Shown: piece after piece, positions 3,846-27,949 of the stretch
Position numbering within the stretch: the stretch's first letter is position 1
Layout: each line of letters begins with the position of its first letter
NCBI GenBank assembly: GCA_030704615.1
Contig: JAKLZA010000121.1
Coordinates: 1-28,608 of the forward strand
DNA: 28,608 nucleotides
Direction of reading: 5' to 3'
Origin: Takakia lepidozioides
Lineage: Eukaryota; Plantae; Bryophyta
Position numbers and translations under genes: made by a program
The notes under the pieces: generated by a model
What the model was told of the DNA's origin: nothing
Seen by the model: the letters and a program-made list of their open reading frames with translations, nothing else
Database searches by the model: none

Positions 3846-4701
3846 CTTCCTTCCTCGAGTATGTTTGTACCTTGCTATCGCAGATCTAGTGTAAATCGGT
3901 TTACTGCTGTCTCCAGAACACAGTTGAAGAATGAGCAGAGCATATGGCGGAGGAAGCTCAGATAACGACTGTGCATATTCTGTTATTCATTCCAGATATG
4001 CAGCCGTCCATTTTAATTACTTTCTTGTGGGCCCAGTGGTCAGAGAATCCCTAGGGGCAGTGTCGGCAACTGTTAAACCGTTAATCAGAACCTCATCAAT
4101 AAACCCAATAACAAAGCCGACTTCCTGGAAGCATGCCACAGGATCTGAGAATGGGATTGCAGATTAAGTAAATGTATCTATATACTACTACCAATGATCA
4201 TGCGCACCTGGAAAGTTCCAAATGTGAAACGAATGTGGGGTTTGGATAACAAGGATGACCGTGTATGATATTCCAAAATTTGTCATCAAACTCTCGTTCA
4301 TTTATATTATTTGTTTAAGACTGCGCATCAATTTCTGGGATTCGCTGTTCTTTTTTAAATATTGAACCCGTTATAATAAAGAACACGCCGTTTTTTTTTT
4401 GGGCGGCACACGTCAGACATCCATAACTGAATACGAACAGCTGTACACCAATTGCTGGCATGTGCACTAATAAGGAAACGACTATGTGTAACGGTCACGC
4501 GGGAGGGAATCCGATGCTTCTAGAGACACGCAAGAACACAGGCAATCCCGCAAGAAATCGGGAGTCACTGCGTTTTTCTACTTTTCGCGCTTAGAGGGAG
4601 AGTGGTAGTCAAGCTGGAGAGGGTTCCTTCTAGAATACGAAAGAAAAAAGTCTCTTTATTTTTTTACTTCCCTTAGAGAGAGACGCAGAGCAAGAGAGAA
4701 A
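3846..4701. promoter_or_regulatory. Intergenic region between divergently oriented transposase and ParB-MTase genes; likely bidirectional promoter
   Basis: Transposase ATG at 3845 (minus) and first exon of the plus-strand gene near 4702; AT-rich core at 4170-4400. Promoter function is inferred from geometry only. Confidence 0.4.
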
Positions 4702-5080
4702 ATGACGAGGCGTCGTTTGTTGAGAACACAGGGCCAAGGCAGCAGGTGAACGCGGAGACTGATTCACAAGAGCAGACGGAGACTGAGGCAGCGGCTGCGA
4801 CACAGTCGGCGATAAGAGTGCGCCAGCCTGTGGAGGCAGAGATGATCGCAGGGACACTGAAGAAGGTGGAAGCACGCGGAACGCCGAACCTGAAGAAGGT
4901 CAAGAAACCCTTGCGCAGACAGAAACTCCAGCAGATGTGAGAGGGAAGAGGAAAGCTGCAGAAGGGGATCAAATTTCAAAACCTAAGAAGGTGCCAGTAA
5001 GTTTTATCATATAGTCTGTCTGATTGCCTTTCAAGGAGTCCTTCCTCTTCCATTCTTTAGCAGGAACTACTGAATCGCGA

Positions 5081-5396
5081 GCGTCGTTAACGCCATTCGA
5101 TTCTCCTCATGAGATTTATGTACCTATGTGTTTGAAGAGAGAGTCTGCACTTACTATTCTCCCTAAACTACACTGAATGTCGTTGCCGCCAATCAGTTGC
5201 ACATATATGTCATTACACAACACCGATCCGGCAGGTGTTATCTTTTGTGATTGTCGTTAACGCCGTTCGCTATCGCTCTCGCTTTTGTTTTGAATACGGC
5301 AGTCTCGGCTTTGCATGTGTAGATTGTGCTGAATTCTTTCACACCATTCATGGTGAGTTTCCTTGATACAGAGTGATTGTCGTTACCGCCATTCAC
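5081..5396. repeat. Four degenerate copies of the intronic palindrome (intron 1 of the ParB-MTase gene)
   Basis: gcgtcgttaacgccattc 5081; tgaatgtcgttgccgccaatca 5174; gtgattgtcgttaacgccgttcgc 5247; gtgattgtcgttaccgccattcac 5373. Confidence 0.75.
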
Positions 5397-7234
5397 TATT
5401 TGCAAATCACTTAGTCAGAACTGAATGGCATCGTGCAGAAAACTGTGAGGTCGAAGCCTACAGGATCAGAGGGGAAAGGATCTGGAGATGGGGACGAGTC
5501 CGCAAAAAGCTCAGAGAATACAGATGAAGCAGATGAATCCGAAGTGCACTACCTTGACAAGGTGAAAGAACTCATGTCATTCCAGAAGGTAAACTCTCAG
5601 GAGGTTATAAGGGACATGCTCGTATCTGGAGGGCGTCTGGACATACCTCTGTGCCGGATGATATCAATGCCTGTTGTGCGTCCACCTCTTTCCCATGACA
5701 TAACAAAATTGGAGAGTGATTTTGTGCATGGATATAGACTTGGTGCACAAGTTTTTTATGTGTCACTGACGGATATAAATGGGAAAAGCACATTAGTTTC
5801 TCCAGAGATCAGTGATAACTGGGATGAGTGCTGGAAAGATGCCAATGAGGAGTTCGAGCTGGGCCTCATGATGGGAAAGAACACCCAGCAATTCTGCAAC
5901 CACATGTTCTACGTCTGGGACGGCAACCACCGATTGCTGGCATGGATGGGATACATTCAGAAACACCATTCGAAAGACAAAGACAAGCATGTTGCTGTGG
6001 AGGCAATGGTTTTGGATCCAGGAAACGACATCGCTAGGCTTCTTACAGCTATGCACGACGTGAACAAGTAAGTCATCCAGGAGATTTGATTCCCTCTGTA
6101 GTGTCTTGTTAATCCTCAAAAAACAGTGTTAAGGAATGCAATGTTTCCAATGTTTTTGCAGATCGACAGAGAAATCGCATGTGACAACAAGCTTGGTTCA
6201 CACACTATTCCGAATTCAGAGGATTGGTCTGATGAAGCTGGATGATTTTCGGACAGTACTACCACCCAATATCATCAAGAAGTGCGAAACAGGAAGAGCT
6301 GCAGGCACTTGGTATTCTTTGACACGAGAGGCGTTTCTGGAGTACATGTATGCGGTAAGCCCGAGTCTGTAATCTGTTTACTTTTCGAATACATGTTTAG
6401 AGTCCCTTCGGAGCTAATCACTACTTGAATGAATGCAGCAAGAACTGGCAGAGGCAGCTGAGAAGGGAAAATCCGAATATTACCGCACTACACCAGAGGA
6501 ACTAAGGACATCAAAGGGTGTGGAAGCTGCAATAAAGAAGGAGTTTGAGATGCGAAGAACCAAATTGATGTCAGCCTTCGGAAAGCAGCTTAGAATAGTA
6601 GATCCTGGACTTGGTCCTGAGTTCCTTCAGCAGATCAAAACACACTATGACAAGCATGTGCATCCGGAGATGCAGCAGGAGAAATTGCACCGGCTGGCCA
6701 TATCGATGGTCGACCCACAAACAAAAATAAGGTGGCTGGAGATATGGAACTCAGATCAAACAGTAAAGGACTTGAATCAGTTCCCAAAGAGCACCATACA
6801 GCCTGGCACAAAGGTGGAAGGAATCAGTGATTTGGTGTTTGATAACTGGCTCCACAAGGCTACATTTTGGAGTCAGGTGTGTATTCGAACATGCTGTTTC
6901 TTCTCTTCAAGTATGTGATGTGTATCTTTTTTGCAATTCTGACAAATATACTATTTGCAGCTCGAAAAGCGCGCCGTCATTGTGCTGGATCAGACTTTGA
7001 AGGACCTGAACATTGCGATTGTTTCCCCTCCCCAAATGTCATTGGAGGCATATTGTTTTTTCCGGGAGTTCTCCAAAGATGGTAACATTTTACGGTCCAA
7101 CGACTTTGACAGTCAGGTTGGAGGAGAGTGGGCCATGATGCGAGTTGTGTACAGGTGCAATGTCATACTTGAAACTCTACTGTTTTTTTGGGAAAAAATG
7201 TGGCTTCATATGGATTGCAATCTTAGATCCAGAT

Positions 7235-7959
7235 TGAATGTCGTTGACGACATTCACTTCTTTGTCTAAGTCATTCTTAAGCGAGTATATGAATTCACCT
7301 GGTTAGGATCTAAGGGTGCAATTATATTGTCCCTGATTAGAATTGATAATGTCCTTGAATGGCGTTGACGACATTCACATACGGAGTTGTTGAGAGGTCC
7401 TCAAGGTTATTTAAATTTTTGTAATGTCCATAGAGGTTACAGTGAGGGTTCCTCACTTCATTTTGCTGAATGTCAATGCAGACATTCAGTTGTTCTGCAT
7501 TGTTTTTTCCTCTTGCGATGAATGTGGAGGCTTGATAAGCTCTGTTTTAAGAAATCCAAAGTGAATGTCGTTGACGACATTCACAGCTGTGTCTGTATTA
7601 TTCAAAAGCGACAAATTCAATTTACATGGATTGGGGAGCTAAGTAATTGGTTTCTTTTTTGTATTTTTGTGAATGGCGTTGACGCCATTCACATACAGTG
7701 ATGTTGTGAGGTCCTCAGTGATAGGTTCGTTATGAATGTGCATTGAGTTTTCCTGGATGGTTCCTTACTCAATTTTTTTTATTTCCATCCTGTGATTTTG
7801 CTTCATTTAAGTAATAATTTGGCTTCATTCTTGAATGTCGTTGACGACATTCACTTCTATGTCTGTGTCATTTCTAATCGATTATTTGCATTCACCTGGA
7901 TTAGGATGTATTTACAGTGTCATGGAATGGAATGTTCTGAATGGCGTTGACGACATTCA
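7235..7959. repeat. Array of seven 22-26-bp palindromes (GTGAATG[T/G]CGT-TG-ACG[A/C]CATTCAC) in the 946-bp intron 7155-8100
   Basis: Copies start at 7235, 7356, 7466, 7561, 7668, 7832 and 7938 (spacing ~95-165 bp). The spacers are diverged but mutually related. Confidence 0.92.
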
Positions 7960-10429
7960 TATCTGGAGCAGTAGTGTGGTCCTGAAAGGTCCTTGGAGCA
8001 GTTGTCAGAGCCATTTCAATCCCTGTTTTATTCTTTCTGTTCTACTTGCATCTTACTCACTGAGCGCTTTTGTGGGTTGGGATTCATCTCCTTTTTTCAG
8101 GTACACGAAATATGTGCTTATGGAAGGAAATCACCTGAGCGGAATTCCCGACTATCTTGACATGTGGTCGGACCCTGCAAACGATCCAACCATGTATACT
8201 GCAGGGATATTGAAGGACTGGAGTCCTTCTCACTTCAGAGACTGTGGGTGGTACCTTGACTGCCCACCTGAGCACACGACCTTTCAAGAACAGCATATGA
8301 AATACTTGAACAATAACGCTGAGATGCTGGCGCCTTTGACTGACGAAGAGTATCAATGAAACATAGCAACCTTGGCTGCCAAGGAGCCTGATGCTCAGGG
8401 AACGCCGCAGAAGGGAAAGAAGGCGGGCCGCAAACCAAAAGACAAGGCTGTTGATGTCATAGCCATCTCACCAGCAAAGCCAAAGGACAAAGACAAGTCC
8501 AAAGAGAAGGAAAATGACAAGGGGAAGGAGAATGAAAAGGAGATGGAGAGTGGGCAGGACTTTAGTGCTGGAAGATATACCCGCACTCTTCAGTGCGTGT
8601 TCGATGCCAAGCCACACCCTTCCCGTTCTGATTCAGCAGGAGAGATGAAAATTGTTAATGAGGGTTGGCTTTCGATGATGCAGAGTCGAAAGAGAGGATA
8701 CACTGGGGTGCCATCCCCTACCTGGGACAATATAATCTCATTCCTCAATCTGGTGAGAATTCCAGTTTCTTTCCTTTTCTCTGAAAGTTTCGTTGGCAGT
8801 ATTTCAGTCTCGTTCTTTGAAAACATTCTTGCCATCGTTCTTATAAAAAACATGTCTGTTTGCAGGTGAGCACAGGTCCCACCTTCGTGTGCGGTGTGCA
8901 TAAAACTTATGCGGCCGACATTGTCATTCTCGACATCCCGGATGGCCAGGCTGTGCCAGAAGTTCTTCCAAAGGGCAAGACGCCAGGCTGGAACAAATTC
9001 GAGGACAACTACTGGAGTTGGGTGTTCGGGTTCTGTAACAATTTCCTCTCTGATGCAGGGACACTTCTGCTTTTTCAGTCATGTGACAATGATAGTCGTC
9101 GGGCATTGGCATCATACCTCAAGTCTTCAGGGTTTGAAGTTTTGCGCACATGGAATTGTGTGAACAGCCTCTACCTTGTGAAAGGGGGTTTCCCTGGTCA
9201 GCTGGTATGCCGTCTCCCTTCTGCTTGTGCTTTGATCATGAGTTTCAATTTTCTCTGCAGCTCCACTCTAGTAGAATGTTTTATGATCGACACCGATCAT
9301 CAACGATTCATGATTTTTTTGTGTCAGAGTTCTGAATAGCCGATGTACACACTTCCACTTTAGATTGTGTTTACCACACTAACCTGCTATCTTTGGCAGA
9401 CGAGGATGTTCGAGGCGATCTGCCTGCGGAGGATTCGCACATCAAAGACACCATCCTCCATCCGCAGCTTTGAGATTTCTGACCAGGGTTGTTTCGTCAA
9501 CCCCCCCTATGAGCCCCATGTCGATGACATTTTGTACAACTTCATGCAGTCCAGTCAGACTCTGAAGAGACCAGATGGCACTCCCTGGAGAGGTGCAAAG
9601 GAAAAGTCACCAGCATTCATGCAAATACTGCTGGAGTCATGCAGCCACCGCTCTGCACGGGTGGTCGATCTTTCTGTGTCCACAGGTTCATTTTTTCCCT
9701 TCCGAATTGGTTTTCTTTCAACAGTTTCATCTGCTTAAATCCCCCCCTCCAAACTGTTCATGTTCTCCTGTCTGGTGCAGGAGCAACTTACCACGCATGC
9801 AAGGCAGGCGGAAGAAGCCTTTTTGGCATGGAGGGTGATTCTGACCTCTACAACACCGTGCTCCTCCCCCTTTTGTCTGGCTCCACTTCAGGCACACAGA
9901 CTGATCGTATTCAAATTCGAAATGATGACGATCCCGAAGATAAGCAGGTCGACAACGACTTTTCATGTGAGTAAGTGCTAAACCCTCTTTGGGGTCATAC
10001 TCAATTTCTCGATAACATCAAAGTTACAGTAATAACTTTTTCAGGCTGTCTTTCAGGAAAGCCAGCGGTGGATCTTCAGGAGATACAGTCATTTCTGGCG
10101 AGTCTGTTTTCGACAGCCCCCTTTCCAATTTTCTGCTCCCTGTTTATGCCGAAGCAATGGCACTTCACGCGGCCGAGTCCCTATCCCCTGACTTTTTAGT
10201 GGCCAGCCGTAGGTGTATCCAGCGTGGATCCGGTGTTCTAAAATACTTAGACTTAGATGCAGAGGAAGAGGGGATACATTGTACTGACTCTGAGTCAGAC
10301 TGAACTGTATTATTTTAATATTCATTTTCATATTATCTGGAAAACGTTGAATCCCCTTCCTCTACCGTAGTTGTTCCTTTAGAACAAATAATAATCACAG
10401 AATCAACTTTCGTTTAAATTGCTATATGT

Positions 10430-10790
10430 ATGAATCCATCTCACAAACCTTCCTGACTCTTCTCATATCCATTGTGCATTCATCTACACTGTATTCATGC
10501 GTGCTCCATTCATGAAAGCTTCCTTTGTACAACATCCATTGTACATTCATCCTCTGTACTCTTTAATCCACCCCACAAACCTTCCACACTCATTTCATAT
10601 ACTTTGTGCATTCGTCAAAAGATTTGGTCATGCATCTTCCTGTCATGAATTTTTGTCATTGCTCAACATCCATTATACATTCATCCATTTTACTCTTATC
10701 CATCCGTCATTCATCCATCTACATACATTTTTCACACTCATCCATCTGTTTATCATCCAACTGTACATTCATCCATCCTTTATTCAATGC
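10430..10790 (+). repeat. Low-complexity block of (T)TCATCC/ATCCAT motifs
   Basis: Many catcc/ttcatcc/atccat units; reverse complement of the GGATGAA block at 27950-28075. Confidence 0.55.
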
Positions 10791-10943
10791 CTTTTATTAT
10801 GTCGTCCAGCTTGTTTCCGCGGTAAAGGGTGCCAATCCGCGGGAATACACTCCACTTCTTTCTGGGTGCGTGGTGACTCGGCCTTCACGTGTGATGACGT
10901 GGACTGAGCCCCGTGACGTGGCATTTGCGCAAGGTGACGTGGC

Positions 10944-13143
10944 GTGAGCGCAGTTGCGCTCACGCGCTCACGTGACCAGGCTCACGCCGAGGCATCCCTG
11001 GCTGACCAGGATGGCTCGGAGCGGCAGACTGCACAGCTCAGCTCTGACTGCACAGTTCAGATTGCACGGCCTGACCAGCACACTGCACACTTCACAGAGG
11101 GAAGGACTGACGACCAACCTGCCACCGAGCACATTGCCCACATTGAGGAAGAGACTGAACCGCAGAGTTGCCAGCAGACTGCACAGTTCATAAACGAAAG
11201 GACTGACGAAGAACCGACGGCCGAGCAGACTGCCCACATTGAGCAACAGACTGAACATGCTGGCAGGCACACTGACAAGGAACCACATGCGGCGTAGACA
11301 CCGTCTGGTATAGCACTGGATTACATGGAGTCTGCTCCCTCACCCCTTGGGCAGGTTGTGCCATTTCCTCTTTCAGCATTGTTGTTTATGTTTTAGCACA
11401 TTATGAAATTGGGCTAATTCAACATTTTGCTCGGTATCCTCACAGGATGTTCGTCCCTCCGTCGGCAGACTGTCTACTTCTGAGGACATGACATCTTCCG
11501 CCCATGCTGCAAACGTGGGATCGACAACCATCAAAGGTGTGGGGGTGAGCACGTCCCCCGATGCGCGGGTCAGTTCTACGCATGCGACCCACGAAGCTGC
11601 AAAGACAGGTCCAGCAAGTGTAAACAAACCTGCTGACCAGCCTCTGTTGCGAAGTAGGGCGGCAGCGCTGCGTTTGTCTGCTCTATCCAGCCCGCCTACA
11701 GCTGTCCTTGCTTCCCAGGGGAGAGGCAAAGCCAAGAAGCGGACTGTCGTGGACCATGCTGAGGAGGTCGAGGAGGGTCCGAGTACCAAGAGACCGGCGA
11801 AGAAAAAGTCTGGCGTCTTTATGAACAAGAACCGCAAGCTGGCCTTGGACATAGACAAAGATGTGGGTTGTTTCCTAGAGCAGCACAGGTGAGTACTGTG
11901 CTCAGTCTCCTCGTCTGTCTTTGTCGTTAAGTGCTTTGCGGTCTGTTGTGGTCAGTCTACACGCTGGTCAGTCTGCTGCTGGTTTCATCATTGTCTGTTG
12001 TGGTTAGTCTTGTCAGTCTGATGAATTGTTCAGCCTGTAGAGTGTTTGGTACCATGTTGACGTCAGTCTGTTCAGTACATGAGGCTTCCCGAAGGATGGT
12101 CTGCTCTGTGCAGGATGGGTGCTCGGTTTGGCAAAGCACATGCTCTGCACGTGAAGGCGGGTAATTCCATGCTGATGTTTTTTTAAGGGGACCCACGGTT
12201 TGAATGCGGACTGTCGCCGGATGACATAAAGGCGGTCCAGAAGGTTGAGTCGGAGTGCACAGATAGACTCTTGGAGCTGTGGTGTCGATTCTATGAGAAG
12301 TCGGTTGAGGCTGCGTTCACCAAAACTATTGCTGTTCTTCCAACGTCGACGTGGACGGTGTTGAAGTCATTGGGGGTGGGGCAACATGAAAGCCTTCTGG
12401 AGGTCTTGAAAGGTTGCCTCAGCACTGAACGACTGGGTAAGGACTTGAAAGAGTGCGATTTCATTTTGGTGCCAATTGGGGACGAGTAAGAACTCTTCTG
12501 AGTCTGCTGAGACTGTCTTCTGAGTCATAGTCTGGTTTTGCAGTGTCGTCTTGACTCTGAGCGATTAAGTTGACCTCTGTATTTGTGCAGTGGACTAGGT
12601 TTGAAGATTGAGTCTGCTGAGTGTTGAGTCTGCTGAGTGGTCGGTCTGCTGAGTGTCAGTTTGCTGAGTCTGCCCATCATGATTGTGCAATGACGCCATG
12701 TTGTTTGATACCATTGCAGGGGGCACTGGAGTGTTTGTATCATCGACCTCCGCAAGGGCTGTTACACTCACCTGAACTCTATCAGGGACTTGCATAAATG
12801 TCCCTTTGTTCTAGGGTGGATTTGGAAGCTTCATGCGCAGTGCTTAGGGTACTCGATGGACTCACCAGAGTGGCATGAGATTGTCCAAGCATTTCAGTTC
12901 CACGCGCCTGATGTGCCCCAGCAACCATTCAGCTGGGAGTGTGGCTTTTACGTCATGTCATTCATTCAAGTGTTTTATGAGAGGGTAAAAGTCAGAGCAA
13001 ATGTCTCCAAGACTGCAAAGCCAGAGAGAGGAACACCTTTCACGAAGGACTGGTTTTCTTTCAAGTTTGCACTTGGGCAGCGAATGCAGTGTGCCCAGTA
13101 TATCGTGCGGGGGTTGGACAATGTAGAGAAACTGCTCTCATGA
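10944..13143 (+). CDS. Ulp1/C48 SUMO-peptidase-domain gene (TE-borne, multi-exon, probably degraded in its 5' part)
   Basis: Splicing 12485^12720 joins ECDFILVPIGDE-GHWSVCIID..HLNS..DVPQQPFSWECGFYVM, giving the His / Asn (Asp position) / Gln-Cys arrangement of C48 peptidases. Upstream low-complexity exons (~10944-11293, 11446-11889) include KRPAKKK. 5' structure uncertain. Confidence 0.75.
12486..12719 (+). repeat. Intron rich in AGTCTGCTG(A) short motifs
   Basis: Repeated ctgagtctgctgag units; similar GTCTG motifs in 11892-12110. Confidence 0.55.
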
Positions 13144-13688: not shown

Positions 13689-13952
13689 GAATTGCAGACT
13701 TATATTGTCTTCTTCGTGACACGTACACGACATGAAACCTTATCTCTTTTCGAGGAATTGCAGACTTATATTGTCTTCTTCGTGATACCTACACGACATG
13801 AAACCTTGTCTCTTTTCGAGGAATTGCAGACTTATATTGTCTTCTCCGTGACACCTACATGACGTGAAACCTTGTCTCTTTTCGAGGCATTGCAGACTTA
13901 TATTGTCTTCTTCGTGACATCTACACGACCTGAAACCTTGCGAATTTTCGAG
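13689..13952. repeat. Four tandem copies of a 66-bp unit overlapping the 3' end of the second transposase
   Basis: gaattgcagacttatattgtcttcttcgtga... starts at 13689, 13755, 13821 and 13887. Confidence 0.92.
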
Positions 13953-15154
13953 TATATATGTGCTGCAGGTGCAGGTGCAGACACCCTCTTGCTGGTTCTC
14001 CGCAAAACCCTAGGCCGGGTTTTCCAGGCCTTCACGAAATCTCGTCTCCTTTTCAGAGACATGTTGTTGTTGTCGTTCAGAGGACGGAAAGCCTTCGCTG
14101 CCGCAGGGTGCAACATTCCAGCCGCACTTTTCGCCAGGATATCAACGAGCTGCCCTCTGCACATATGAAGAGCAGATCGGGCATGTGCCTCCAGGTAACC
14201 TACAATGCGAAGTATGTCCGCGAATTCTTGTTCCAATGAGGCTGAGACCTCCAGAGGTGCCTCGTCGTAGGGGAAGTCGTCCGGAGGATGTCTTTCCATG
14301 AACTGATTGGATTCGTCGTTGCCGCCGGCACCATTGCCCAAGAGCAAGTTAGGTAATCCTCCATGAATGGTTCCTAGCGCCGTGCCATAAGCGCGCACAA
14401 GGAGGCCATCCTGCAGGTCAGGGTGAAGCATCTTCAGGACATGAACCTGATGCTTGCATAAGTTTCCCTTCATTGCCCATGGGCACGTGCAACAACCCCA
14501 ATCGCAATCAGGATTGTAAACAATGTATGTTGTGTCGGGGTGGTTGCTGCTGAGAACGTAGGCTGGTTCACCAGGACCCAAGGGAAGAGTAACACTCTCA
14601 GCAGAAATGTCTCGTGCCGCAAGTATAGAATTGGATATGTACTTTTCGTGTTTGTCATTTCTTATGAACCCGTGGGTCTTCAAATGGATTGCGTACCAGT
14701 AGTGTGTTAGCACACGGCCAGTGAGTTCCCATATAAGCCAGTCCACTCTACGACCACTCATCTTACCTTTCCCCATGGCAAGTCTTGCCTTCAGATTTCC
14801 ATGGTATGCCTCAATGCTTGCGTTTGTGTCTTGCCTCACATGAGGGACATGGCGGGCTGCTGTACACCACATTGCTATTTTGGGCTTCCAGTACTGTTCA
14901 ATATAGTCAAGAAATTTATGTCATTTCGGGTATTTTGACCTCATACGACGGATTCTCCTTGCAACCCACCGAAGCGTTCTTTTCTCGTTGCGTGGTCCCC
15001 CTCTACAGTACATGAGGTCTCCCATATCCTTCAACAAGTTTACAGCGGTCACCGAATCCTTCATTTTCTTGCATGATTGCTTCACCCATGCCTTGCGGAC
15101 ATGCCAAAGGCAGAGGAAAATGAGTACTCCTTCAAAAACAATTCTGCACAACAC
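13898..15154 (-). pseudogene. C-terminal half of a second MULE transposase (CxxH, catalytic E, SWIM); N-terminal exons not seen in window
   Basis: IFLCLWHVRKAW (~15100), RQDTNASIEAYH (~14811), GRRVDWLI, SWIM CTCPWAMKGNLCKH (~14450-14492); frameshift at about 14880-14960; splice acceptor tgtgcag near 15145. Confidence 0.8.
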
Positions 15155-15584: not shown

Positions 15585-15772
15585 TGTCGTGCGCATACAT
15601 ATCGCTACACAACTACATCGCTGTCCAAAACCACACAACACATGTGCACACCACACACTAGTATACCACTAGTCTACCACTAGTCCAACCACTAGTCCAA
15701 CCACTAGGCTACAACTAGTCAGTCACTAGGCTGCCACTACGCTGCCCACTATGGCAGTCACTAGTCCACACA
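15585..15772 (-). repeat. Terminal repeat segment A (outer copy)
   Basis: TGTCGTG...CCACACA; identical to 16103-16278 except for one extra 12-bp ACTAGTCCAACC unit. Confidence 0.95.
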
Positions 15773-15773
15773 A

Positions 15774-16100
15774 TGATAAAGAGGAAGAATACAAGCACAA
15801 GCTCATGCGAGCTCACAAAGCTGAAGCATAAACTCAGGCATATATAACCTCATCACTCAAATACAAGTCAAGCCAAGTGCACCCCACGCCATGGGGAATC
15901 CACACTACGGCGCCATAGCTAGGCGCGGTGAGGCTCAACTCGAGAAAGATGAGCCTCCCGCGCTTGCCGTGAAGATAACCACTCCAGGGCCTAAATCTGC
16001 CTTGACCCCTGGATTGACACTTGGGCCAATCCCAAATGTCAATATGTAAAAGCTAGCTATTTCCTAGCTAGTTTCACACTAGTGGTAAAATAACTTGACA
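15774..16100 (-). repeat. Terminal repeat segment B (3' copy, 327 bp)
   Basis: TGATAAAG...CTTGACA; differs from 27334-27657 by a 1-bp indel, a 2-bp indel and one substitution (by eye). Confidence 0.95.
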
Positions 16101-16102
16101 GC

Positions 16103-16278
16103 TGTCGTGCGCATACATATCGCTACACAACTACATCGCTGTCCAAAACCACACAACACATGTGCACACCACACACTAGTATACCACTAGTCTACCACTA
16201 GTCCAACCACTAGGCTACAACTAGTCAGTCACTAGGCTGCCACTACGCTGCCCACTATGGCAGTCACTAGTCCACACA
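16103..16278 (-). repeat. Terminal repeat segment A (inner copy, adjacent to PPT)
   Basis: Direct repeat of 15585-15772; joined to B through the palindrome GACAGCTGTC (16097-16106). Confidence 0.95.
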
Positions 16279-16280
16279 AT

Positions 16281-16290
16281 CGCCCCCCTA
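16281..16290 (-). promoter_or_regulatory. Polypurine tract (plus-strand primer)
   Basis: Minus strand reads TAGGGGGGCG-AT-TGTGTGG, i.e. a G-run just before the TG start of segment A. Confidence 0.65.
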
Positions 16291-16538: not shown

Positions 16539-19500
16539 CTATCCCAAGCAGTGTGGACACAACCAATCTCCGTCAGGAACCTTCTCAAGGGGTGGTGTCA
16601 AGCATCCCATATGCCAACCCCTTGAGCACCGATCACACACCAGCATGGTGGCTGCCCCTTTGGCAGACCCACAGAGCATGCACCTCAAACCTGCAGGTAC
16701 CACTGCCAAGTTTGGGTCAACTCTGCCATCGACATTGGGAAGGTGACATGGCGCACAATTACGCACATGGTCTTTCCAAGTCATGCCATCCCGACCCTCT
16801 AAGATCAGGACCCCTGAGGGCAACACCTCTCGAACCCTCAGAATAACACGCCCTGCAGTAACATCCAGAGTCGTAGGAGCAGTCTGCTGCAAATAAACAT
16901 AGTCACCAGGGCTAAACCTCCGAACCCCAGGACGATATCCTCCACCACATATAGTGGCATACCTCAACGTATCACGGTGCTGTGCAATGGCAAGGTTCTC
17001 AAAAGCCATGGGCATGACTTTCTTGAACAACTCTGCACGCTGATCACATGCACGTACCCACATGTCCGGATCGTCAAGGTTAAGGACTTGAGCAGTGTCC
17101 CTACGAATGGCTGCAGGCAAATCCGGCTCTCGGCCAAAGAGAAGGAAATATGGTGAGAAGGAGGCAAGTGATGCTTGTTTGCTGAACCTTAGCCCATGGC
17201 TAACCAAGGAACCTGAAGATCCCAATCTCCTAGGTGTCCCTTCTGCAAGCCATACTTGCGCAAACCCCTCTTCACCGTCTGAACAACTCTCTCTGCTAAG
17301 CCATCGGCCTCAGGATGATCCCGAGAAGTGGTGCGGTGGTCTATCAAGGCTTTATCACACAAAGCCTGAAACTCCCCCAAGAACTCTCTCCCTTGGTCCG
17401 TGAGTACCTCAGCTGGAGCACCAAATCGGCTAAGCACACGATCCAAGAATGCATACGCAGCCCCCTCACTAGCCTTGTCAGGCAATGGAACCAACTCAAT
17501 CCACTTGGAGAAGTGCTCCACCATCACCAACACATATCTGTGGTGGCGCATAGTCAGTGGCAACGGTCCTGCGAAGTCAAGACTCCACCTGTAGCCTAAT
17601 CCCATGATTGGTAAAGGATGCAACTGTGGTGTAGGGGCGTTGAATGAAGCACGCACCCTGTCACACACCATGCACCTAGCCACAAACTGTTGCACCTCTG
17701 TATGCATACCACGCCACCAATACTGCCCCTGCAGTAAACTGTGAGTGCGTCGCACTCCAAAATGCCCCAACTCCTCATGGGCATGCCGCACTAACCGTGC
17801 ACGCTGTGTGGGGTGAGGCACAATCCTCACCCGACCATCCTCCCACACTCGAAGTAGGTGTATCCCCTCCCACTTGAACCTCTTGGCTTGTTGCAGGATC
17901 CGATCCCTCTCCCTGGCAGTCACAATGGCTGCCGTGTCTCCCGTGCGGAGGTAGTCCAACACAGCCGAATCCTCATGTATATCTCTGGCACCACCTAGCT
18001 CATCACTAGCCTCAGGGTCCTCAGACACTCCGTCTACAGTCATCCCTGTTGTAGGTCCAATCTGACCTCCCGATGCCAAGATACACAAAAATGCAGATGC
18101 GTGCCATCCCGGCACCATCTCCTCGTCCGTCTCACCATGCCACCGAGCTCCAGTGTCATCCTGCTGGCTCATGCATGGATTGCGACTCAATCCATCCGCA
18201 TCCCGATTGACCAAACCCGGTCGATGCACAACCTGAAAGTCATACTCCTGGAGTATAAGTGCCCACCGTGCAAGCTTCCCCGTAAGCTTGTCTGACTCCA
18301 TCAACCACTTGAGTGGCTGGTGATCCGTGACAAGGGTGAAAAGATTGCCGTATAGATAGCACCTGAAGTGTGCCATGGCCCACACTGCAGCTAAGCACTC
18401 TCCCTCATATGAGCTGTACTTAGCCTCTGCAGCGTTGTTCGAGCGACTAGCGTAAGCCACTACGAACTCTCTTCCCTCATCATCCACCTGTGTGAGCACC
18501 GCTCCAAGCCCCAGCATGCTCCAATCCGTATGCAGCTGAAAGGGACGCCCCCTGATAGGTCGTCTCAAGATAGGCGCCGAGGTCAACCTCGCCTTGAGCT
18601 CTTGAAAAGCTCGTTCCTGCTCATCTTCCCACTGCCACTCTTGGTCCACCTTGGTCAGCTTGGTTAGAGCCTTTGCAATGGTACTAAATCCCTTGACAAA
18701 CCGTCTATAATAGTTTGCCAACCCCATGAAAGCTCGAACTCGGCTCACATCCGTGGGGCGTGGAATTTGTGCAATGGCCTCTACCTTAGTCTGCTGTACC
18801 CCCAATCCTCCAGGATATATCATGTGACCCAGATACTCAATCTGGTTGTGGAAAAACTTGCACTTCCCCGGATGCAACTTCAATCCGTGCGCTCTCAAGC
18901 GCTCCAATACCACCTGAAGGTGTCTCTCATGCTCCTCCATCGTAACACTAAAGATGATGATGTCATCTATGTAGCACCGAGCAAAGTCCACCCCTGCTAG
19001 AATCCTATCCATGACTCTCTGAAACTCTGCAGGAGCATTCTTAAGCCCAAATGGTAAGAACCGCCACTGATATAGGCAATCCTTGCCGTGCTCATTGATC
19101 CCCCAGAATGCCGTCTTCTGCTTGTCCGCCTCCTTGATTGGCAACTGGTGATATCCGGATCGTAAATCCAAAGTGCTAAAGGCCTTAGCATGCCCGATGG
19201 CATCAAAGATCTCCTCTGGTGTTGGCATGGCATACTTATCGGACTTGGTCTGACGATTTACAGGCCGGTAATCACCGCACATACGTCTCTCCGTCCAATT
19301 GCCATAGACATCCTTCTTGGCTGGCATCACTGTGGCTGAAGCATACTCTCCACCAGAGAGCTCCACCAAACCTGCCTCCCAGAGATCTTGAGTCCTCATC
19401 TGAATCAAAGACCTCTCCATGTCACTGTATCTATAGGGTCTCCGAAAGATTGGCGTGTCAGTGGCCAACTCAATACGGATCTCTTGACCCTTCAGTGCTC

Positions 19501-19672
19501 CCAAGTCCTTCAAACTGAAGGCAAAGCAATTCCTGTAAGCCCTCAGGAACCACCGTATACGTCGTCTCTCTCCTCCGGTGACAATGGGTCCAATGTCAGG
19601 CTCCCAATTGTCCTCCGTAACTACAACCTTAAGTCCAGTGGGCTTAGAGGTAGAGGACGCGTCCCGTGGTTG
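16539..19672 (-). CDS. pol: Pol: reverse transcriptase - RNase H - integrase - PHD finger (1-nt frameshift at ~17190)
   Basis: RT: RMCGDYRPVN, LDLRSGYHQ, LPFGLKNAP, YIDD (~18962-18973). RH: LHTDWS, YSSYEGECLA, TDHQPL, ADGLSR. IN: H-x6-H..CMVC, WSLDFAG, VLTDQG, GLAER. ATGGGCTAAGG restores to MGYRFS with one added base. PHD C4HC3 at 16548-16682. The frame is open upstream to TAG 19673-19675. Confidence 0.93.
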
Positions 19673-19787: not shown

Positions 19788-22004
19788 TCATCCATCACAG
19801 CCGCCTTGGCTGCCAACTCCCTCTGAACCTCGAGCACCTCCCACGTGCCATGGATGCATGCACCCCGTGGTCCTCATATGCTCGCCCCCACTCACTGCCT
19901 GTACCGTCTCGGTAGGCAGAGAGACCATTGAGGGAAGTGTATTCCGCACTCTGCGTTGCTCAGCTAGAGCCAAGCTGATAATCCAGGTCAAGCAATTGAG
20001 ATCCATTGCTTGCCCCAACACTTGACGACGTGATGCCTCAGAAAGAGACGACACCGCCGTGGTACCAGTGGTAAAACCCATTGCCCGCTCACGCTCGTCA
20101 GCATTAGGCTCCACTAACTGCTGCAACTGAGCATCCCACAGGAGGCCAGGTCCACTATCCCGGAAAGCATGCGATCCTGGGAAGCTGAGCAGTGTAGGTA
20201 ATGCTGCTCGTGGTTGACCCACCTTGTTGACCACTGCCAAAGGCGAACGGTCATCGTGTCTCACACGTTGAGACTGCCTCCCTGTGTCCAGAATGTTATC
20301 CACTGTGAGATGTGCTGGCCGCTGCACCCCATCAAATGCACGCTTGAGCAGTGCGGGTGGCATCATGTTAGTCCACCATAGCCGTGGACGATGAGCCCGT
20401 GACCCCACTGTAGCTGCATCTAGCAACACTGCTGACCCAAGCCACGACCGGACTTGATGCACACTGGCCATCACCCTGGCCCGAGAATAGCCCATCAGTG
20501 GCACATTCTCCAAGATGTATGCTGGAGATACAGCTTGATGAAGCTGCAAGTGGCGCAAAACCCGCACCATCTCCCAAAACAGACCCGACCTCGAGTCTCG
20601 CAATCCATTGCCATGCCCGGCTGATGAATGCCCTTGGCAGGGCCAACCTGCCACTACCAGATCAATGGAGCCAACCCGCTCCAAATCCTGCGCCCCCAGC
20701 AACGAAATGTCTGCTGGCAAGGCCTGCTGATATCCACGAATTGCAGACACCGACAACAACTCAGGGTACCGCTGCACCAACTGAGCAACATGGCGAAGTG
20801 AAACGCGTCGTGCAGTCTCATCCCTCTCCACATACAGGTAACGCCGAACTCGTACACCTGCCTGTAACAAAGCAGCCAATCCGGTGCTGATCCCGCCAAA
20901 CAAGTCCAGAAGACAAATGCCTTCATCCGGAGACTGCCACACAATAGGTGTGGTGTCCAATGGAGACAATTGAGGTGGTCCTGGTGCAATCCCCACACTC
21001 TCCTCCTCTCTTGACGGTACAAAAGCCTCCACCCAGGCTTGTTGCACCCGTCGATCAGCATCCCGCTGCAAATCCTTGCTCGTGCCCCACAATGGAGTAT
21101 GAGCAACCATGGTAGGCAACTCCGCCATACCATACATGTCATCCTGCTCTCCCAGAGGTGGTACATCCTCTAAATGAGCATTGCCCTCAAGCAACTCTCT
21201 AGGCCAACTCACTGCCGCTGTGAATGCTGCTAGTGTCGGCATCTTGCCTCGCTGGGCAACCGCAACTCCTCCTATGAACGTCACAGGGAGCTGCACACGC
21301 CGGCCCTCCCCTGACTGCCATGCAGGCCTATAGGAAGCTGACTCCTCCCAAAAATCCAGGGTGAAGCCCATGGGGTACAACACTGCCCCACCAACCAGGA
21401 CATCGTATGAGACTGCGTCTGTCACAATGGCCTTGGCTCGCATCACTGAGCCATCTGTAGGGTGATCCGGCCGTAGTCTGATAGCCAACTCATGCCGTGT
21501 CATGCCCCGAGCCTGCTCCGATCCTCCCAGAGACATCTGTATCTGGAAAGGACAAGGCTCCATATCCGCCTCCGTGAGGCCCAAGCCTGCAATAGCAGCT
21601 CTGCCCAGCATCAGTGGCTGAGCTCCCGAGTCCAACAAGACTCGCAGTGGCCGGTACCTCTTGCCTGCCGGTCCACTCAAACAGAAAATGCCATCCTGGT
21701 TGTCTAACATGACAACTCCAGGTGTCACCATGGCGCGCTCAATGGCTGGCCTAGCTGGCAGCTCCATCAACCTGGCAGCTGCAGCTTGCCATGGCGCCGC
21801 CGTGGCAGTCTTGACCCTCAAATCCGAGGATCCCTCCGGCACTACACCTCCCACTATCTCCGCAGAAGATGAAGTAACCTCCCCACTCTCACAGAGTGTA
21901 GCTGCCAGCCTGAACACCTCAGCTGGTCTTACCCCCGGCATCGCAATCATGGTAGCCAAGAACAATGGAGCCTGGCACACAGATGTGGCCGCTCCTAGCA
22001 GCAC
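19788..22004 (-). CDS. Aspartic protease followed in frame by a complete DNMT3-like cytosine-5 methyltransferase domain (~19960-20920)
   Basis: PR: VLLDSGAQ (D at 21630-21632), YDVLVGG. DNMT motifs: I LDLFGGISTG; II YVERD; IV VAGWPCQG (20634-20648); VI ILENV (20502-20510); VIII AHRPRLWWTN; IX ERERAMGF; X RRQVLGQAM. Confidence 0.93.
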   Translation of the reverse strand: MLLGAATSVCQAPLFLATMIAMPGVRPAEVFRLAATLCESGEVTSSSAEIVGGVVPEGSSDLRVKTATAAPWQAAAARLMELPARPAIERAMVTPGVVMLDNQDGIFCLSGPAGKRYRPLRVLLDSGAQPLMLGRAAIAGLGLTEADMEPCPFQIQMSLGGSEQARGMTRHELAIRLRPDHPTDGSVMRAKAIVTDAVSYDVLVGGAVLYPMGFTLDFWEESASYRPAWQSGEGRRVQLPVTFIGGVAVAQRGKMPTLAAFTAAVSWPRELLEGNAHLEDVPPLGEQDDMYGMAELPTMVAHTPLWGTSKDLQRDADRRVQQAWVEAFVPSREEESVGIAPGPPQLSPLDTTPIVWQSPDEGICLLDLFGGISTGLAALLQAGVRVRRYLYVERDETARRVSLRHVAQLVQRYPELLSVSAIRGYQQALPADISLLGAQDLERVGSIDLVVAGWPCQGHSSAGHGNGLRDSRSGLFWEMVRVLRHLQLHQAVSPAYILENVPLMGYSRARVMASVHQVRSWLGSAVLLDAATVGSRAHRPRLWWTNMMPPALLKRAFDGVQRPAHLTVDNILDTGRQSQRVRHDDRSPLAVVNKVGQPRAALPTLLSFPGSHAFRDSGPGLLWDAQLQQLVEPNADERERAMGFTTGTTAVSSLSEASRRQVLGQAMDLNCLTWIISLALAEQRRVRNTLPSMVSLPTETVQAVSGGEHMRTTGCMHPWHVGGARGSEGVGSQGGCDG

Positions 22005-23727
22005 ACTAGCTGCCGTAGCCTTGGAACACTAGGTAGTGGTGCTGCCTGTGTAGCTCTCCCCAATGGCATAGTAACCTCCGCCTCGGTAATAGTCGGGCGA
22101 GAACTAGGTGCCATGGGTGGCGTCGACACTGTCTCCGCCAATGTGAATGACTGAGGAAGCCTAGCCTGACGGCTTGCCTCCCCACGCTGTGGATCCAACT
22201 CCACCTCTGCACCTCGTGGCTCAGGAACTCGTGCTGCTCCTCGAGTCACGGCTGCAGCAGACTCCACCTGCACTAGTGGTAGTGCTGCTCCACACATGAA
22301 TCCCATGCCTCCCATATCTCCTCCCTCAGGAGCAGGAGGTGGACCATCCGGCCTTAGAGCCGGTACCACCTGAGCTGTAGCCATGGCAGCGAGCCTCTGC
22401 TCTAGCTGCTGAAGCCGGTTGGCCATGCCTTGGTCAACACCCTGACCTCCGCGTCCTTGGCCACGTTGAGCTTGCCCTTGGCTTGCACCTCGTGGCTGGC
22501 CACCTCGTCCTCTCTGGGCTGCTCCACCTCGCCCCCAGCCACCATTGTTCCCTTGGAACTGGCCTGGGCGCAACTCAGGATGCAAACTATAACACTGGGC
22601 CTCTCCATGCCCGTGCTTGCCACAATGCCCACACTGCAACTGTGCAGGCTGTGCATGTGCCGACCCTTTGCCTCCCTCTGGGCAATCCTTCTTGACATGG
22701 GGTCCTCCACATGTCCAGCACACCACATCCGCCCGTTGTTGGCCAGCAAATGAAGGAGAGACCCCTGCATTTGAGGTCCTCTCTGCCCTTCCCTGAGCTT
22801 CACCTGAGCCCCCTTGTTGCCTTGAGCACGTTGAGGTAGTGGTTGGCTAGGAGCACCACTACCCCGTGGTGTCTCCTTAGCAAATCCCACCATGACCACT
22901 CGTTCCTCCACCATGTTGAGCTCTATCCGCTCTGCCAGCAAAAACACATTTGCTAAGGTGGGTTGGGCCGCTTGTAGGAGAGTTGCATCCCGCACCCTTC
23001 TCCTCAGCTCCTTGTCCAATATCCCATACCAGAATTGGACTGCCTGAGCTTCCGTAACCCCTTGGGTTACATTTATCAAGCGCCTCATGCGAGTGAAAGC
23101 CTCCCTCAAGCTCTCGGTCGGCTTCCGTTGGAACTCTTGCAAGCTCCGCAACTTCTCTGTCCTCACCCCTTGGTAGTTCCCTCTCAACTCTTCGAAGAAC
23201 TCCACAACAGGGTTGAAGGCAGGCACGGGTGCTAGTGCTGGTGCGGTAGTGGCTTGGGTGGACGTCGTAGCTACTGTACCACCAGTCCCACTGCTGCTTG
23301 CTGAAGCTGCCGGTGCAGCGGCAGGTGTAGCCACTGCCCTCGTGGCTCTAGTGCCCCTAGTGATGGAGACATAGTCGGGTGACCAGTACATCCTCCACTC
23401 CTCGATCTCAACCTCATGCCCCCGCCTGAACTCATGGTAATCATCCATAGGCGGCCCCTCAAGGTGCTGAAACAGCCCTTTCCATGCCATGAACGGCGTA
23501 AATAGTTGTGGATTGCGCATTTGCTGCAAATCACACCAACTATCAAACTCTTGGATAAAATCATCCAACTCAATGGTGCCCACCGCCCCAGAGTACCTTC
23601 GTGGCCCCTTGGTAGCTCCATACATCTCCTCCATTGTGTCCCACAATAATGGCAAAGAAACAACTTGCACCGCCTGTATGAGCCCTCCTGATTCACAATC
23701 CGAATCAGAACCTTCCGTGGAAGACAC
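21995..23727 (-). CDS. gag: Gag (capsid-like region + two CCHC zinc knuckles + RGG-rich stretch), frameshifted at ~22800 and ~22035
   Basis: FQRKPTESLREAFTRM (retrotrans_gag Q..ES..Y..RF-like); CWTCGGPHVKKDC and CGHCGKHGHGEAQC; GRGG repeats. Confidence 0.85.
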
Positions 23728-24054
23728 AGGAGGTGAAGGTGGGCTCTAAACCGCACACCTCGTCTCGTGTACCCACTGTCCCTAACCCCCTCTCCACAAG
23801 GTAACCGGGTAGAGAACCTGTTGCGGCTTATGGTTTGGAATACTAAGTTCCTAACATAGCCTACACCTGAACTTGCATGACCATGGGAATATCATGAAGA
23901 TATCCTCACCGCCCTCCACGAGCTTCAAATTCGGCCTTCCAGACCACATGCCAGTCCTTAGTCCACCAGTGCCTCCACAAGTCAGCACAGGCCATCCCAG
24001 GTCAACACGGGCCACCACAGACCAGCACAGGCCCACACACATCAGCTCACTGGT

Positions 24055-25790
24055 CACACAGCCGTCACAGTCCCCAGGCCACTGGGCACAGCACAGCCTG
24101 TCACAGCCCCTCACGCTCGTCACAGCCCTCAAGCTCAGGCACAGCCTGTCACAGCCCCAAGGCCTCAGGCGCGGCCTATCCCACACAGCCCCTCACAGCG
24201 TCACAGCCCCAAATCATGGGCACAGCGTGTCACGGCCCGTCACAGCCCGTCACAGCCTCAAAGGCCTCAGGCACAAGCCTTGCACAGCCCATCACATCCC
24301 CAAAGCCTCAGGCACGGCCTGTCACAGCCCTCACAGCCCGTCACAGCCCCAAAGGCCTCAGCGGCCTGTCACAGCCCCTCACAGCCCGTCACAGCCCCAA
24401 AGCCATGGGCACGGCCTGTCACAGCCCTCACACCCAGGCCATGGGCACGCCTGTCACACACACAGCCCCTCCAGCCCGTCACAGCCCCAAAGGCCAGGCA
24501 CGGCCTGTCACAGCCCCCACAGCCCGTCACAGCCCAAAGGCCATGGGCACGGCCTGTCACAGCCCTCCAGCCCGTCACAGCTCAAAGGCCTCAGGCACGG
24601 CCTGTCACAGCCCATCACAGCCCCAAAGCCTCAGGCACGGCCTGTCACAGCCCCTCACAGCCCGTCACAGCCCCAAAGGCCTCAGGCACGGCCTTCACAG
24701 CCCCTCACAGTCACAGCCCCTCACAGCCCTTCACAGCCCCAAAGGCCTCAGGCACGGCCTGTCACAGCCCCTCACAGCCCGTCACAGCCCCAAAGGCCTC
24801 AGGCACGGCCTGTCACACCCTCACAGCCCCTCACAGCCCGTCACAGCCCCAAAGGCCATGGGCAGGCACGGCCCCTGTCACAGCCCGTCACAGCCCAAGG
24901 CCCATGGCACGGCCTGTCACACCAGCCCCTCACAGCCCGTCACAGCCCCAAGGCCTCAGGCACGGCCTGTCACAGCCCCTCACAGCCCGTCACACAGCCC
25001 AAAGGCCATGGGCACGGCCTGTCACAGCCCCCTCACAGCCCGTCACAGCCTCAAGGCCTCAGCACGGCCTGTCACAGCCCCTCACAGCCCCAAAGGCCTC
25101 AGGCACGGCCTGTCACAGCCCCTCACATCACAGCCCGTCACAGCCCAAAGCCTCAGCGCGGCCCCCCCTGTCACAGCCCTTCACAGCCCCCAAGGCCATG
25201 GGCACGGCCTGTCACAGCCCCCCTCACAGCCCGTCACAGCCCCAAGGCCTCAAGGCCTCAGGCGGCCTGTCACAGCCCCTCACAGCCCGTCACAGCCCCA
25301 AAGGCCATGGGCACAGCCTGTCACAGCCCCCTCACAGCCCGTCACAACGCCTCAAAGGCCTCAGGCACGGCCTGTCACAGCCTGCACACAGCCCGTCACA
25401 GCCCCACAGGCACAGGGCCAGCCTGTCACAGCCCTCACAGCCCTCACAGCCTCAAAGCCTCAGGCACGGCCTGTCACAGCCCCTCACAGCCCACATCACA
25501 GCCCCAAGGCCAGGGCACAGCCTGTCACAGCCCGTCACAGCCCCACAGGCCTCAGGGCACAGCCTGTCACAGCCACACAGCCCGCACAGCCCGTCACAGC
25601 CCAAAAAGGCCACGGGCACACAGCCTGACCAGCCCTTCACAACAGCCCCACAGGGCACAGGGCACAGCCTGTCACAGCCCATCACAGCTTGCCACACACA
25701 GCCCCACAGCCCGTCACAGCCCGTCACACCAACACCACAGCTCTCCACAGCACAGCCTGACACAGCCCGTCACAGCCCGTCACAGCTGGC
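24055..25790. repeat. ~1.7-kb hierarchical minisatellite in the retroelement 5' leader
   Basis: 10-11-bp (G)TCACAGCCC subunits grouped into ~50-bp units (cacggcctgtcacagcccctcacagcccgtcacagccccaaaggcctcagg, with a ...ccatgggc variant). Confidence 0.95.
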
Positions 25791-26299
25791 CACAGCTGCC
25801 ACTGCCCCACACTGGCTTAGCCATTTCTCCAAGGGGTTTAGCCACGCCAAGCTAGGGTTTGTGTCTCTTGGACTCTAGGCTTCTTTCCACCGAGCTATGG
25901 TGGCTGTGAGGAAATCAGCAAGGTATCCTTGCTCTTTCGGCTCCCACACACACCACCATAGTAGCCCTAAGCCATGAGGTGGTTGCCACAAACCAAGCCT
26001 TCTTTCTCACTTAGCCTCCCAAACACGCCACTAAACTCAATGGCAAACAACCAAGCCCTGCTGGTTCCCAGCCCTTGTGAGCACTCATTCAAGCACTCTC
26101 CTCTCATTGGCCATAGCATCTGTCTTAGAGCCTATTCCAGCCCCCTACCCTGCTGCTTCAAGAGTTGCGCTCCTTCAAGCTTGAAGTTGAAACCCCAACT
26201 CACATAGGCCCTACAAGTGCTTTTCTTTCACTCCAAGTGGAAACCAGCCCTAGACCTTCCGTTCTTCTGCTCTCTAAAGCTTGAAAACAAGAGCCTCAA

Positions 26300-27317: not shown

Positions 27318-27334
27318 GCTCATCTTTCTCGAGT
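27318..27334 (-). promoter_or_regulatory. PBS-position sequence complementary to the element's own LTR (self-priming-type PBS)
   Basis: 27318-27334 GCTCATCTTTCTCGAGT is the exact reverse complement of 27495-27511 ACTCGAGAAAGATGAGC; there is no TGG-initiated tRNA PBS. Confidence 0.7.
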
Positions 27335-27657
27335 GATAAAGAGAAGAATACAAGCACAAGCTCATGCGCTCACAAAGCTGAAGCATAAACTCATGCATAT
27401 ATAACCTCATCACTCAAATACAAGTCAAGCCAAGTGCACCCCACGCCATGGGGAATCCACACTACGGCGCCATAGCTAGGCGCGGTGAGGCTCAACTCGA
27501 GAAAGATGAGCCTCCCGCGCTTGCCGTGAAGATAACCACTCCAGGGCCTAAATCTGCCTTGACCCCTGGATTGACACTTGGGCCAATCCCAAATGTCAAT
27601 ATGTAAAAGCTAGCTATTTCCTAGCTAGTTTCACACTAGTGGTAAAATAACTTGACA
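27334..27657 (-). repeat. Terminal repeat segment B (5' copy, 324 bp)
   Basis: About 99% identical to 15774-16100; no segment A beyond 27657. Confidence 0.95.
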
Positions 27658-27949
27658 ATTTCTTGAAGTTAGCAAATGCTGGAAAATGCTTATCTTGCTG
27701 GAGGATCTCACCAGCAGATTGACTCTTAGAACACGCTACAACTCGCTTTTCAAGCATGGGAACCTCTCCCCGATCTCAACATAGCATGGGAAGAGAGCTA
27801 ATGGGAACACAGGATAATGTGAAAAACCTGATAGGGGTTTAAATCAGGATAAGCGATCCCCATCTTCCCAACGTATGAAATGACATGGGATAAGAGCACA
27901 TCATGAGGATTTAAACCGGCTCATGTACAATGTAAGTTGGTCATGTCCC

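Follow-up and report, generated by a model that had tools for sequence, protein, structure and literature searches.

Why retrotransposons retain DNA methyltransferases has been a standing question since 2018, partly as the known hosts are hard to handle. It is raised anew by a stretch of 28,608 nucleotides from the bryophyte Takakia lepidozioides (contig JAKLZA010000121.1 of assembly GCA_030704615.1, forward-strand positions 1 to 28,608; called here the window). Its minus strand carries a probably high-copy Ty3/Gypsy retrotransposon of the KnitGypsy-Dnmt3 kind, in which a DNMT3-like cytosine methyltransferase domain (hereafter DNMT) is placed between protease (PR) and reverse transcriptase (RT). 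In order, the element possesses a repeat A1, a leader with a tandem array, gag, PR, DNMT, a TAG stop, RT, RNase H (RH), a DDE integrase (INT), a PHD finger and the repeats B1, A2 and B2 (Table 1). A DNMT in a Gypsy element is already known, and the window DNMT is an extension of its range, of land-plant type; the split-repeat anatomy and the integration route are apparently undescribed and form the most novel part. The observations fit a model, on balance probable as a whole, in which DNMT made at the level of Gag would be packaged to methylate the complementary DNA (cDNA) and integration would proceed through a palindrome internal to the long terminal repeat (LTR).

The original prediction, made from the window alone, was of a complete DNMT3-like domain between PR and RT, in frame with the protease, with intact motifs in a linear order unlike that of DRM. 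It held in all these respects, coordinates included. PR and DNMT share one open reading frame (ORF) without stop, and the DNMT motifs follow each other as DLFGG (20906), GWPCQ (20648), ENV (20510), RAHRPR (20399), RERAMGF (20093) and QVLGQAMD (20024). The motifs and the fold of C5 DNA methyltransferases were thus all found, namely motifs I, IV (PC), VI (ENV), VIII (RxR), IX and X. In DRM, motifs VI-X precede I-V, and this permuted order is not that of the window domain. The ORF matched Pfam DNA_methylase (E 3.1e-12), and its sequence matches in the PDB were, in order, DNMT3A (E 2.8e-12), DNMT3B (5.7e-9), DRM (1.8e-6) and M.HhaI (4.4e-4). The domain was modelled by AlphaFold with a predicted local distance difference test (pLDDT) score of 91.7, and Foldseek returned DNMT3A, DNMT3B or DNMT3C in 34 of 34 among the matches listed (ranks 1-50). 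The fold and motif order of the DNMT3A/B catalytic domain are shared, with a TM-score of 0.85 by target length against 6f57_D, although the identity is about 22%; plant DNMT3 (PpDNMT3b) and DRM stand beside DNMT3A/B among the closest known enzymes. A Pfam scan of the window ORFs and of an intact relative, L023, revealed no PWWP, ADD or DUF3444 domain.

Relatives were collected from metagenomes, by way of their DNMT, as the best 80 of 231 confirmed stretches (L numbers). Wherever the contig reaches, PR precedes DNMT and RT, RH, INT and PHD follow it, with deleted copies such as L012 and L070 as exceptions. Among the best 150 representatives at 50% identity, 104 carry a retroelement domain, and so do 77 of the 78 with at least 1000 aa. 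A second domain order, RT-RH-DNMT-INT-PHD, is the commonest full architecture (36 of the 150). Named DNMT-bearing proteins were found in Marchantia, Calypogeia, Riccia, Sphagnum, Closterium, Klebsormidium, Tetraselmis and Monoraphidium, the Tetraselmis protein being N-terminally partial and free of a Pfam methylase match. The nearest named homologs belong to liverworts and Sphagnum, which bears out the predicted occurrence in land plants. In the RT tree and in the DNMT tree alike, the window is placed immediately outside these homologs, and the two trees agree in their branching within this close clade. In a tree constructed without host DNMT3 and DRM, 43 retroelement DNMTs, that of Klebsormidium included, formed one clade against 23 viral methylases, with a support of 100 in the Shimodaira-Hasegawa-like approximate likelihood ratio test (SH-aLRT). 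The window RT fell outside the starred group of a chromodomain element and animal and angiosperm Ty3 sequences, in a tree without Tf1, Tcn1 and Chlamyvir references. The origin of the DNMT is not decided by the ESM Atlas, where viral and streptophyte methylase clusters score equal (0.96). Viral contigs gave no match to an RT-INT query, and their DNMT matches were distant methylases of 24-42% identity. Bacterial genomes likewise gave distant methylases only, except L104, filed in a Synechococcales metagenome-assembled genome (MAG), and L105, filed in a Cyanobium MAG; both are probably eukaryotic contigs mis-binned into cyanobacterial MAGs. The RT of L105 is 39% identical and its order is RH-DNMT-INT.

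This recurrence bears on the possibility that the window DNMT is a host gene captured on a single occasion, or a chimera produced by assembly. The window copy has four frame breaks in its coding region (near 22750, 22020, 19845 and 17190), one of them between DNMT and the TAG stop, and they may be assembly errors, a point in favour of that possibility. Contigs of three public runs cover DNMT throughout with many variants; they vary in length at the same four places, so the breaks are either copy-specific or assembly errors. Summed contig depth was not used as a copy number, and two further runs were set aside, X12 being more divergent and possibly of RNA, and X8 giving no contigs. Because metagenome loci, named plant proteins and the intact L023, L104 and L105 all repeat the same order, capture or chimera was rejected and retains next to no probability. 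The copy had also been called young. This agrees with its A repeats, as A1 and A2 differ by only one substitution and two gaps over 327 columns, although the copy is not intact.

Judged from sequence divergence, the DNMT domain is under purifying selection like RT, and neutral evolution, named at the outset as a refuting outcome, was not observed. Between the window and 10 Sphagnum-like loci, non-synonymous divergence (dN) was 0.215 for DNMT and 0.179 for RT, with a saturated proportion of synonymous differences (pS) of 0.73 for DNMT. The pair L023-L036 gave a DNMT dN of 0.166 and a synonymous divergence (dS) of 1.28. Variants between host copies within DNMT comprised 16 synonymous and 12 non-synonymous changes, with 31% synonymous expected (28 in-domain rows among 40 of 72). 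The dN/dS values within subfamilies (DNMT 0.40-0.53, RT 0.34-0.49) are inflated by post-insertion decay and were set aside as an estimate of selection. The catalytic cysteine is kept in all 77 loci covering the site and the glutamic acid of ENV in 70 of 80. From chlorophytes to bryophytes, both residues are conserved along with the motif VIII arginine and the S-adenosylmethionine-binding motifs I and X.

The position of the stop hints at the level at which DNMT is made. UAG-CAR-YYA is the read-through context of tobacco mosaic virus, and the window stop, TAG CAA CCA, in frame after DNMT and ahead of RT, fits it. Of 37 close loci, 33 have an in-frame TAR-CAR stop at the corresponding position (23 TAG, 10 TAA), loci without a covered linker being skipped. 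In L023 a gag-PR-DNMT frame of 1369 codons is followed by a single TAG CAG TTA and then by RT-RH-INT-PHD of 1047 codons. L104 is built likewise; each has a long ORF pair in one frame with a single TAG-CAG-TTA or TAG-CAA-TCA between. As the stop stands after DNMT, the enzyme is likely made at the Gag level in this clade, which makes its packaging at high level more plausible. From the reading frames, Gag-protease-DNMT is very probably the main product, with RT-RH-INT-PHD reached by read-through.

The repeats are laid out as A, coding region, purine tract, B, GC, A, B. The original prediction had noted the split LTRs, the PHD finger and the read-through signal, and all are present; what the split repeats imply for integration had been missed. 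The placement of a G-rich purine tract ahead of B1 and of a self-complementary primer site behind A1 indicates B-GC-A as the working LTR. The self-primer of the window (17 nt) forms the base of a long stem (fold z -7.6). Of 20 A copies, 7 have a self-primer of 15-17 nt at offset 0, the null maximum being 9-12; these seven belong to three subfamilies whose sequences are unrelated. In six of eight cases the self-primer has a TATA box 26-34 nt upstream, the two exceptions being the window and L042. No tRNA gene was found in the window.

Genomic copies start with the TGTCA of A, finish with the GACA of B, and are flanked by 4-bp target duplications which are exact at 6 of 10 distinct sites, have one mismatch at three (the window included) and are absent at one. 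The B/A junction has the form GACA-NN-TGTC. In 14 loci its spacer was GC (7), AC (4) or GT (3), L064 and L067 being one copy and a match in L043 having been dropped as not lying at a B end. CAG and CTG are the most mutable contexts for C-to-T change in the copies (0.17-0.24), and the AC and GT spacers fit such a change. The palindrome occurs as a single site in L104 and in L105, the same as in the window. Retroviral end processing removes two nucleotides per end (PMC1905944), and with a 2-nt spacer a cut after CA would leave an overhang like a processed retroviral end. The junction of the opposite polarity, A/B, differs in length, being -1 in three loci and the window, 0 in one and +2 in five.

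From this anatomy the following course is proposed. Transcription would start within A1, at the self-primer, and self-primed reverse transcription would yield an ordinary linear cDNA, (B-GC-A)-coding-(B-GC-A). Its ends would be joined, either as a 2-LTR circle or by an end jump of RT, which would create the A/B junction. The integrase would then cleave each strand of the upstream GACA-GC-TGTC behind its CA, so that 2-nt 5' overhangs remain, and insertion would give A-coding-B-A-B. We consider it likely that the integrase cuts the LTR-internal palindrome of end-joined cDNA and that the steps from linear cDNA to insertion run in this way. Translation would give mainly the Gag-protease-DNMT product, and the protease would release DNMT in the particle, where cDNA cytosines would be methylated before integration; this last step is rated slightly on the probable side. 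By analogy, DNMT would most likely act on cDNA inside the particle, as proposed for the Dnmt3 of SymbioDIRS (PMC5890265).

A-coding-B copies were seen at nine loci representing eight sites. They were considered as proof of insertion of a 1-LTR circle and set aside; in L060 and L074 the two forms share a single site, and at least one such copy is therefore accounted for by recombination or by collapse of the assembly. A 127-bp terminal overlap in L104 was rejected as evidence of a circle. Other arrangements were also observed. L031 (5538-5819) has a partial A, 14 nt starting with primer-site sequence, and B, which may be either a junction of cDNA ends with primer remains or an internal deletion. 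L063 and L066 (8872-9032) hold the inverted B end of another copy within the coding region, and L063 has a second A at 14772 with no B after it. The unit of the leader array (23982-25802) includes TGTCAC/GTGACA, by eye like half of the junction palindrome. In the sph and dis locus groups, CHH C-to-T differences are uneven, with 0.07-0.12 for CTA, CTC and CTT and 0.06-0.07 for CAA, against about 0.01-0.02 for CAC, CAT and CCH.

Several points weigh against the proposed model. As the loci represent few host genomes and some are duplicates, the counts overstate independence, and the trees are quick searches with SH-aLRT only, without host DNMT3 and DRM among the sequences. The self-primer is below 15 nt, shorter or decayed, in 13 of 20 A copies, and the A of the window has no TATA box at the expected place. 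The TAR-CAR stop is absent from all 22 distant-clade loci, 10 of the 15 same-frame ones having an open linker, and also from Klebsormidium P0063 and L105; the stop is thus a derived state, and expression of DNMT at the Gag level is not essential to the family. The A/B junction is rather uniform within a subfamily, beyond what random end-joining might give. A 2-LTR circle holds two palindromes, yet only the one upstream is used: the 21 distinct upstream flanks, from 26 loci, all lack B and no A-B-A-coding-B copy was seen, so the model needs an unexplained bias. Either one palindrome is marked, or recombination and assembly from short reads conceal the mirror form. Its absence is explained with no added assumption if the element behaves as Ngaro, PAT or VIPER, whose A1-B1-A2-B2 layout is that of tyrosine-recombinase elements: RNA would reach from A1 to B2, the ends would be rebuilt on the template of the internal B-A junction, and the integrase would use true cDNA ends with no internal cut. 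Near-uniform A/B junctions within subfamilies also suit this course. It is nevertheless unlikely, as the purine tract and the primer site lie where an ordinary LTR B-GC-A would have them, ahead of B1 and behind A1 respectively, the junction length does vary, and the 4-bp duplications go with a DDE integrase; a Pfam search of the five element ORFs and the two of L023 gave the rve integrase and no tyrosine recombinase.

The marking of one palindrome would be accounted for if DNMT shields it from the element's own integrase in the manner of restriction-modification, determining which of the two is cut and protecting the B/A site of every genomic copy. DNMT and palindrome co-occur across the deepest split sampled and in both domain orders, the core CAGCTG can be methylated symmetrically, use is confined to the upstream palindrome, and particles of the close clade are likely to contain much of the enzyme. 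Host CHG methylation could mark CAGCTG by itself, however, CAG and CTG being the most mutable contexts, and the retrotransposon Dnmt3 enzymes tested so far methylate CG with no further preference (PMC5890265). Such shielding is therefore rather improbable, and a similarly low chance is given to the wider proposal of an ancient green-lineage class with end-joined cDNA as its sole route, a DDE integrase acting as site-specific nuclease and DNMT as the matching protective methylase, the integration half by itself being rated likely. The domain may on the other hand be kept for binding DNA or RNA, or for interference with host silencing, and methylate no cDNA at all. Replacement of P-C-Q by E-C-Q before the catalytic cysteine in 28 of 77 loci, including L043 and the distant clade L049-L080, and of W-P-C-Q by W-E-C-Q in 75 of 125 representatives with a readable motif (among the best 150), speaks for this and against the proposed model. 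So does the Klebsormidium domain, which gave no methylation in yeast, a result called inconclusive by its authors; human DNMT3B was likewise negative in the same test (PMC5890265). With the catalytic cysteine, the ENV glutamic acid, the motif VIII arginine and motifs I and X conserved, a non-methylating role is thought doubtful, and methylation of the cDNA in the particle remains the preferred reading.

Table 1. Features of the retrotransposon in the Takakia lepidozioides window (positions within the 28,608 nucleotides).
Feature	Position	Strand	Remark
Whole element, 12,073 bp	27657-15585	-	Ty3/Gypsy type
Repeat A1, left end of the element	27334..27657	-	Begins TGTCA
Primer-binding site, self-priming, 17 nt	27318..27334	-	Exactly complementary to 27511-27495 within A1
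Degenerate tandem array, 10-bp unit, in 5' leader	23982..25802	-	About 1.8 kb
gag, N-terminal piece	22402..23745	-	Retrotrans_gag weak, Pfam E 0.0019, under curated cut-off
gag, C-terminal piece, two CCHC-type knuckles	21995..22846	-	From translation; by-eye match to Marchantia P0003/P0004
ORF piece, aspartic protease and DNMT in one frame, 746 aa, no stop	22028-19788	-	DSGA at 21632-21621
DNMT3-like C5 cytosine methyltransferase domain	19950..20960	-	Motifs I, IV, VI, VIII, IX, X, linear
TAG CAA CCA, likely leaky stop	19675-19667	-	Same frame as RT
RT, RNase H, integrase zinc finger and DDE core	17189..19672	-	YIDD 18973; DDE 17578, 17398, 17293
Integrase C-terminal part with PHD finger	16539..17309	-	PHD Pfam E 3.4e-11
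Polypurine tract	16281..16289	-	Immediately before B1
Repeat B1	16103..16280	-	Ends CACGACA
Palindrome GACA-GC-TGTC at B1/A2 junction	16097..16106	.	Predicted integrase cutting site
Repeat A2	15774..16100	-	
Repeat B2, right end of the element	15585..15774	-	Ends GACA
Target-site duplication, 4 bp, left AAAT	27658..27661	-	One mismatch to right copy
Target-site duplication, 4 bp, right ACAT	15584-15581		One mismatch to left copy

A few further features were observed in the window and in its relatives. The second D and the E of the window integrase (17398-17293) are separated by 34 residues, not 35. Asp_protease matches in ORF1 of L023 lie under Pfam's curated cut-off. In L105 a single ORF of 3265 codons (122-9916) has the RT-RH-DNMT-INT-PHD order, and an extra ORF of 713 codons (10033-12171) lies between pol and the purine tract. 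The flanks of the element hold DNA-transposon-like remains, namely an ORF with a SWIM finger (331-1836, weak Pfam match), another ORF resembling it in Cys/His pattern (13898-14920, no match) and a fragment of a Ulp1/C48 protease (12709-13143). A 66-bp tandem repeat is present at 13689-13940 in 3.8 copies with 93% matches.

Relatives of the element are found among the annotated hypothetical proteins of Marchantia polymorpha, a genetic model. The leaky stop predicts DNMT as a major component of the particle, and the structure of the ends predicts a DDE retroelement integrating through the internal palindrome of joined cDNA, in retroviruses a side route at most. If the protective role of the methylase were true, a restriction-modification-like pair would exist inside a retrotransposon and would explain the asymmetry of the palindromes. 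Annotation of green plant genomes probably mislabels or overlooks the class, since the usual LTR finders look for a pair of equal repeats at the termini. A literature search, with most subscription journals and Repbase reports outside its scope, brought up no paper describing members in land plants, the leaky stop or an attachment palindrome inside the LTR. The accessible part of a preprint (bioRxiv 10.64898/2026.05.21.726589) names 'streptophytes (Gypsy-DNMT3)' and leaves Marchantia and bryophytes unmentioned.

The closest known system is KnitGypsy-Dnmt3 of Klebsormidium nitens, a Gypsy element whose Pol includes Dnmt3 and whose repeats, A-coding-B-A-B, are DIRS-like (de Mendoza et al. 2018, PMC5890265). 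With this description, and with PHD fingers described as widespread in retrotransposons, the original view of the combination as unfamiliar could not be kept. Gypsy-7a_cRei of Chlamydomonas, an active element, is likewise described with a PHD finger and with 'LTR subparts'. The Gypsy order PR-RT-RH-INT, the DDE integrase, an intronless non-permuted Dnmt3, the split repeats and purifying selection are all common to both. The K. nitens protein KFL_009030040 (P0063), with the order PR-DNMT-RT-RH-INT, shows 45% identity across 260 aa of DNMT and 48% across 788 aa of RT-INT, and we infer that it is one of the copies of that paper. In KnitGypsy-Dnmt3, DNMT lies within the uninterrupted ORF of RT, whereas the window and its close relatives carry the in-frame stop. 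The capture was placed in the K. nitens lineage, whereas the relatives found here reach liverworts, Sphagnum, Closterium, Tetraselmis and Monoraphidium and include the second domain order. A mechanism for the split repeats is not given in the available text of PMC5890265.

Ngaro/PAT-like elements, VIPER and SymbioDIRS-Dnmt3 share the split direct repeats A1-coding-B1-A2-B2, and SymbioDIRS also bears a Dnmt3 (PMC6681497, PMC5890265); the window element differs from them by its DDE integrase, 4-bp target duplications, purine tract and primer site. Self-priming, with a primer site complementary to the element's own LTR rather than to a transfer RNA, is a trait in common with Tf1/Sushi and Tcn1 (PMC6317226). 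Tf1/Sushi, Tcn1 and the Chlamyvir chromoviruses have a chromodomain at the C-terminus of the integrase, where the window element has a PHD finger and no Chromo match in Pfam. The integrases of foamy virus and HIV-1 are able to cut palindromic circle junctions and so act, as predicted here, on a double-stranded palindrome of two attachment sites, which arises in these viruses from joined cDNA ends as a side route (PMC1180852, PMC4372172). In the window element, by contrast, the palindrome is encoded in the LTR, the joined ends would not be the attachment sites, and all full copies observed fit the route.

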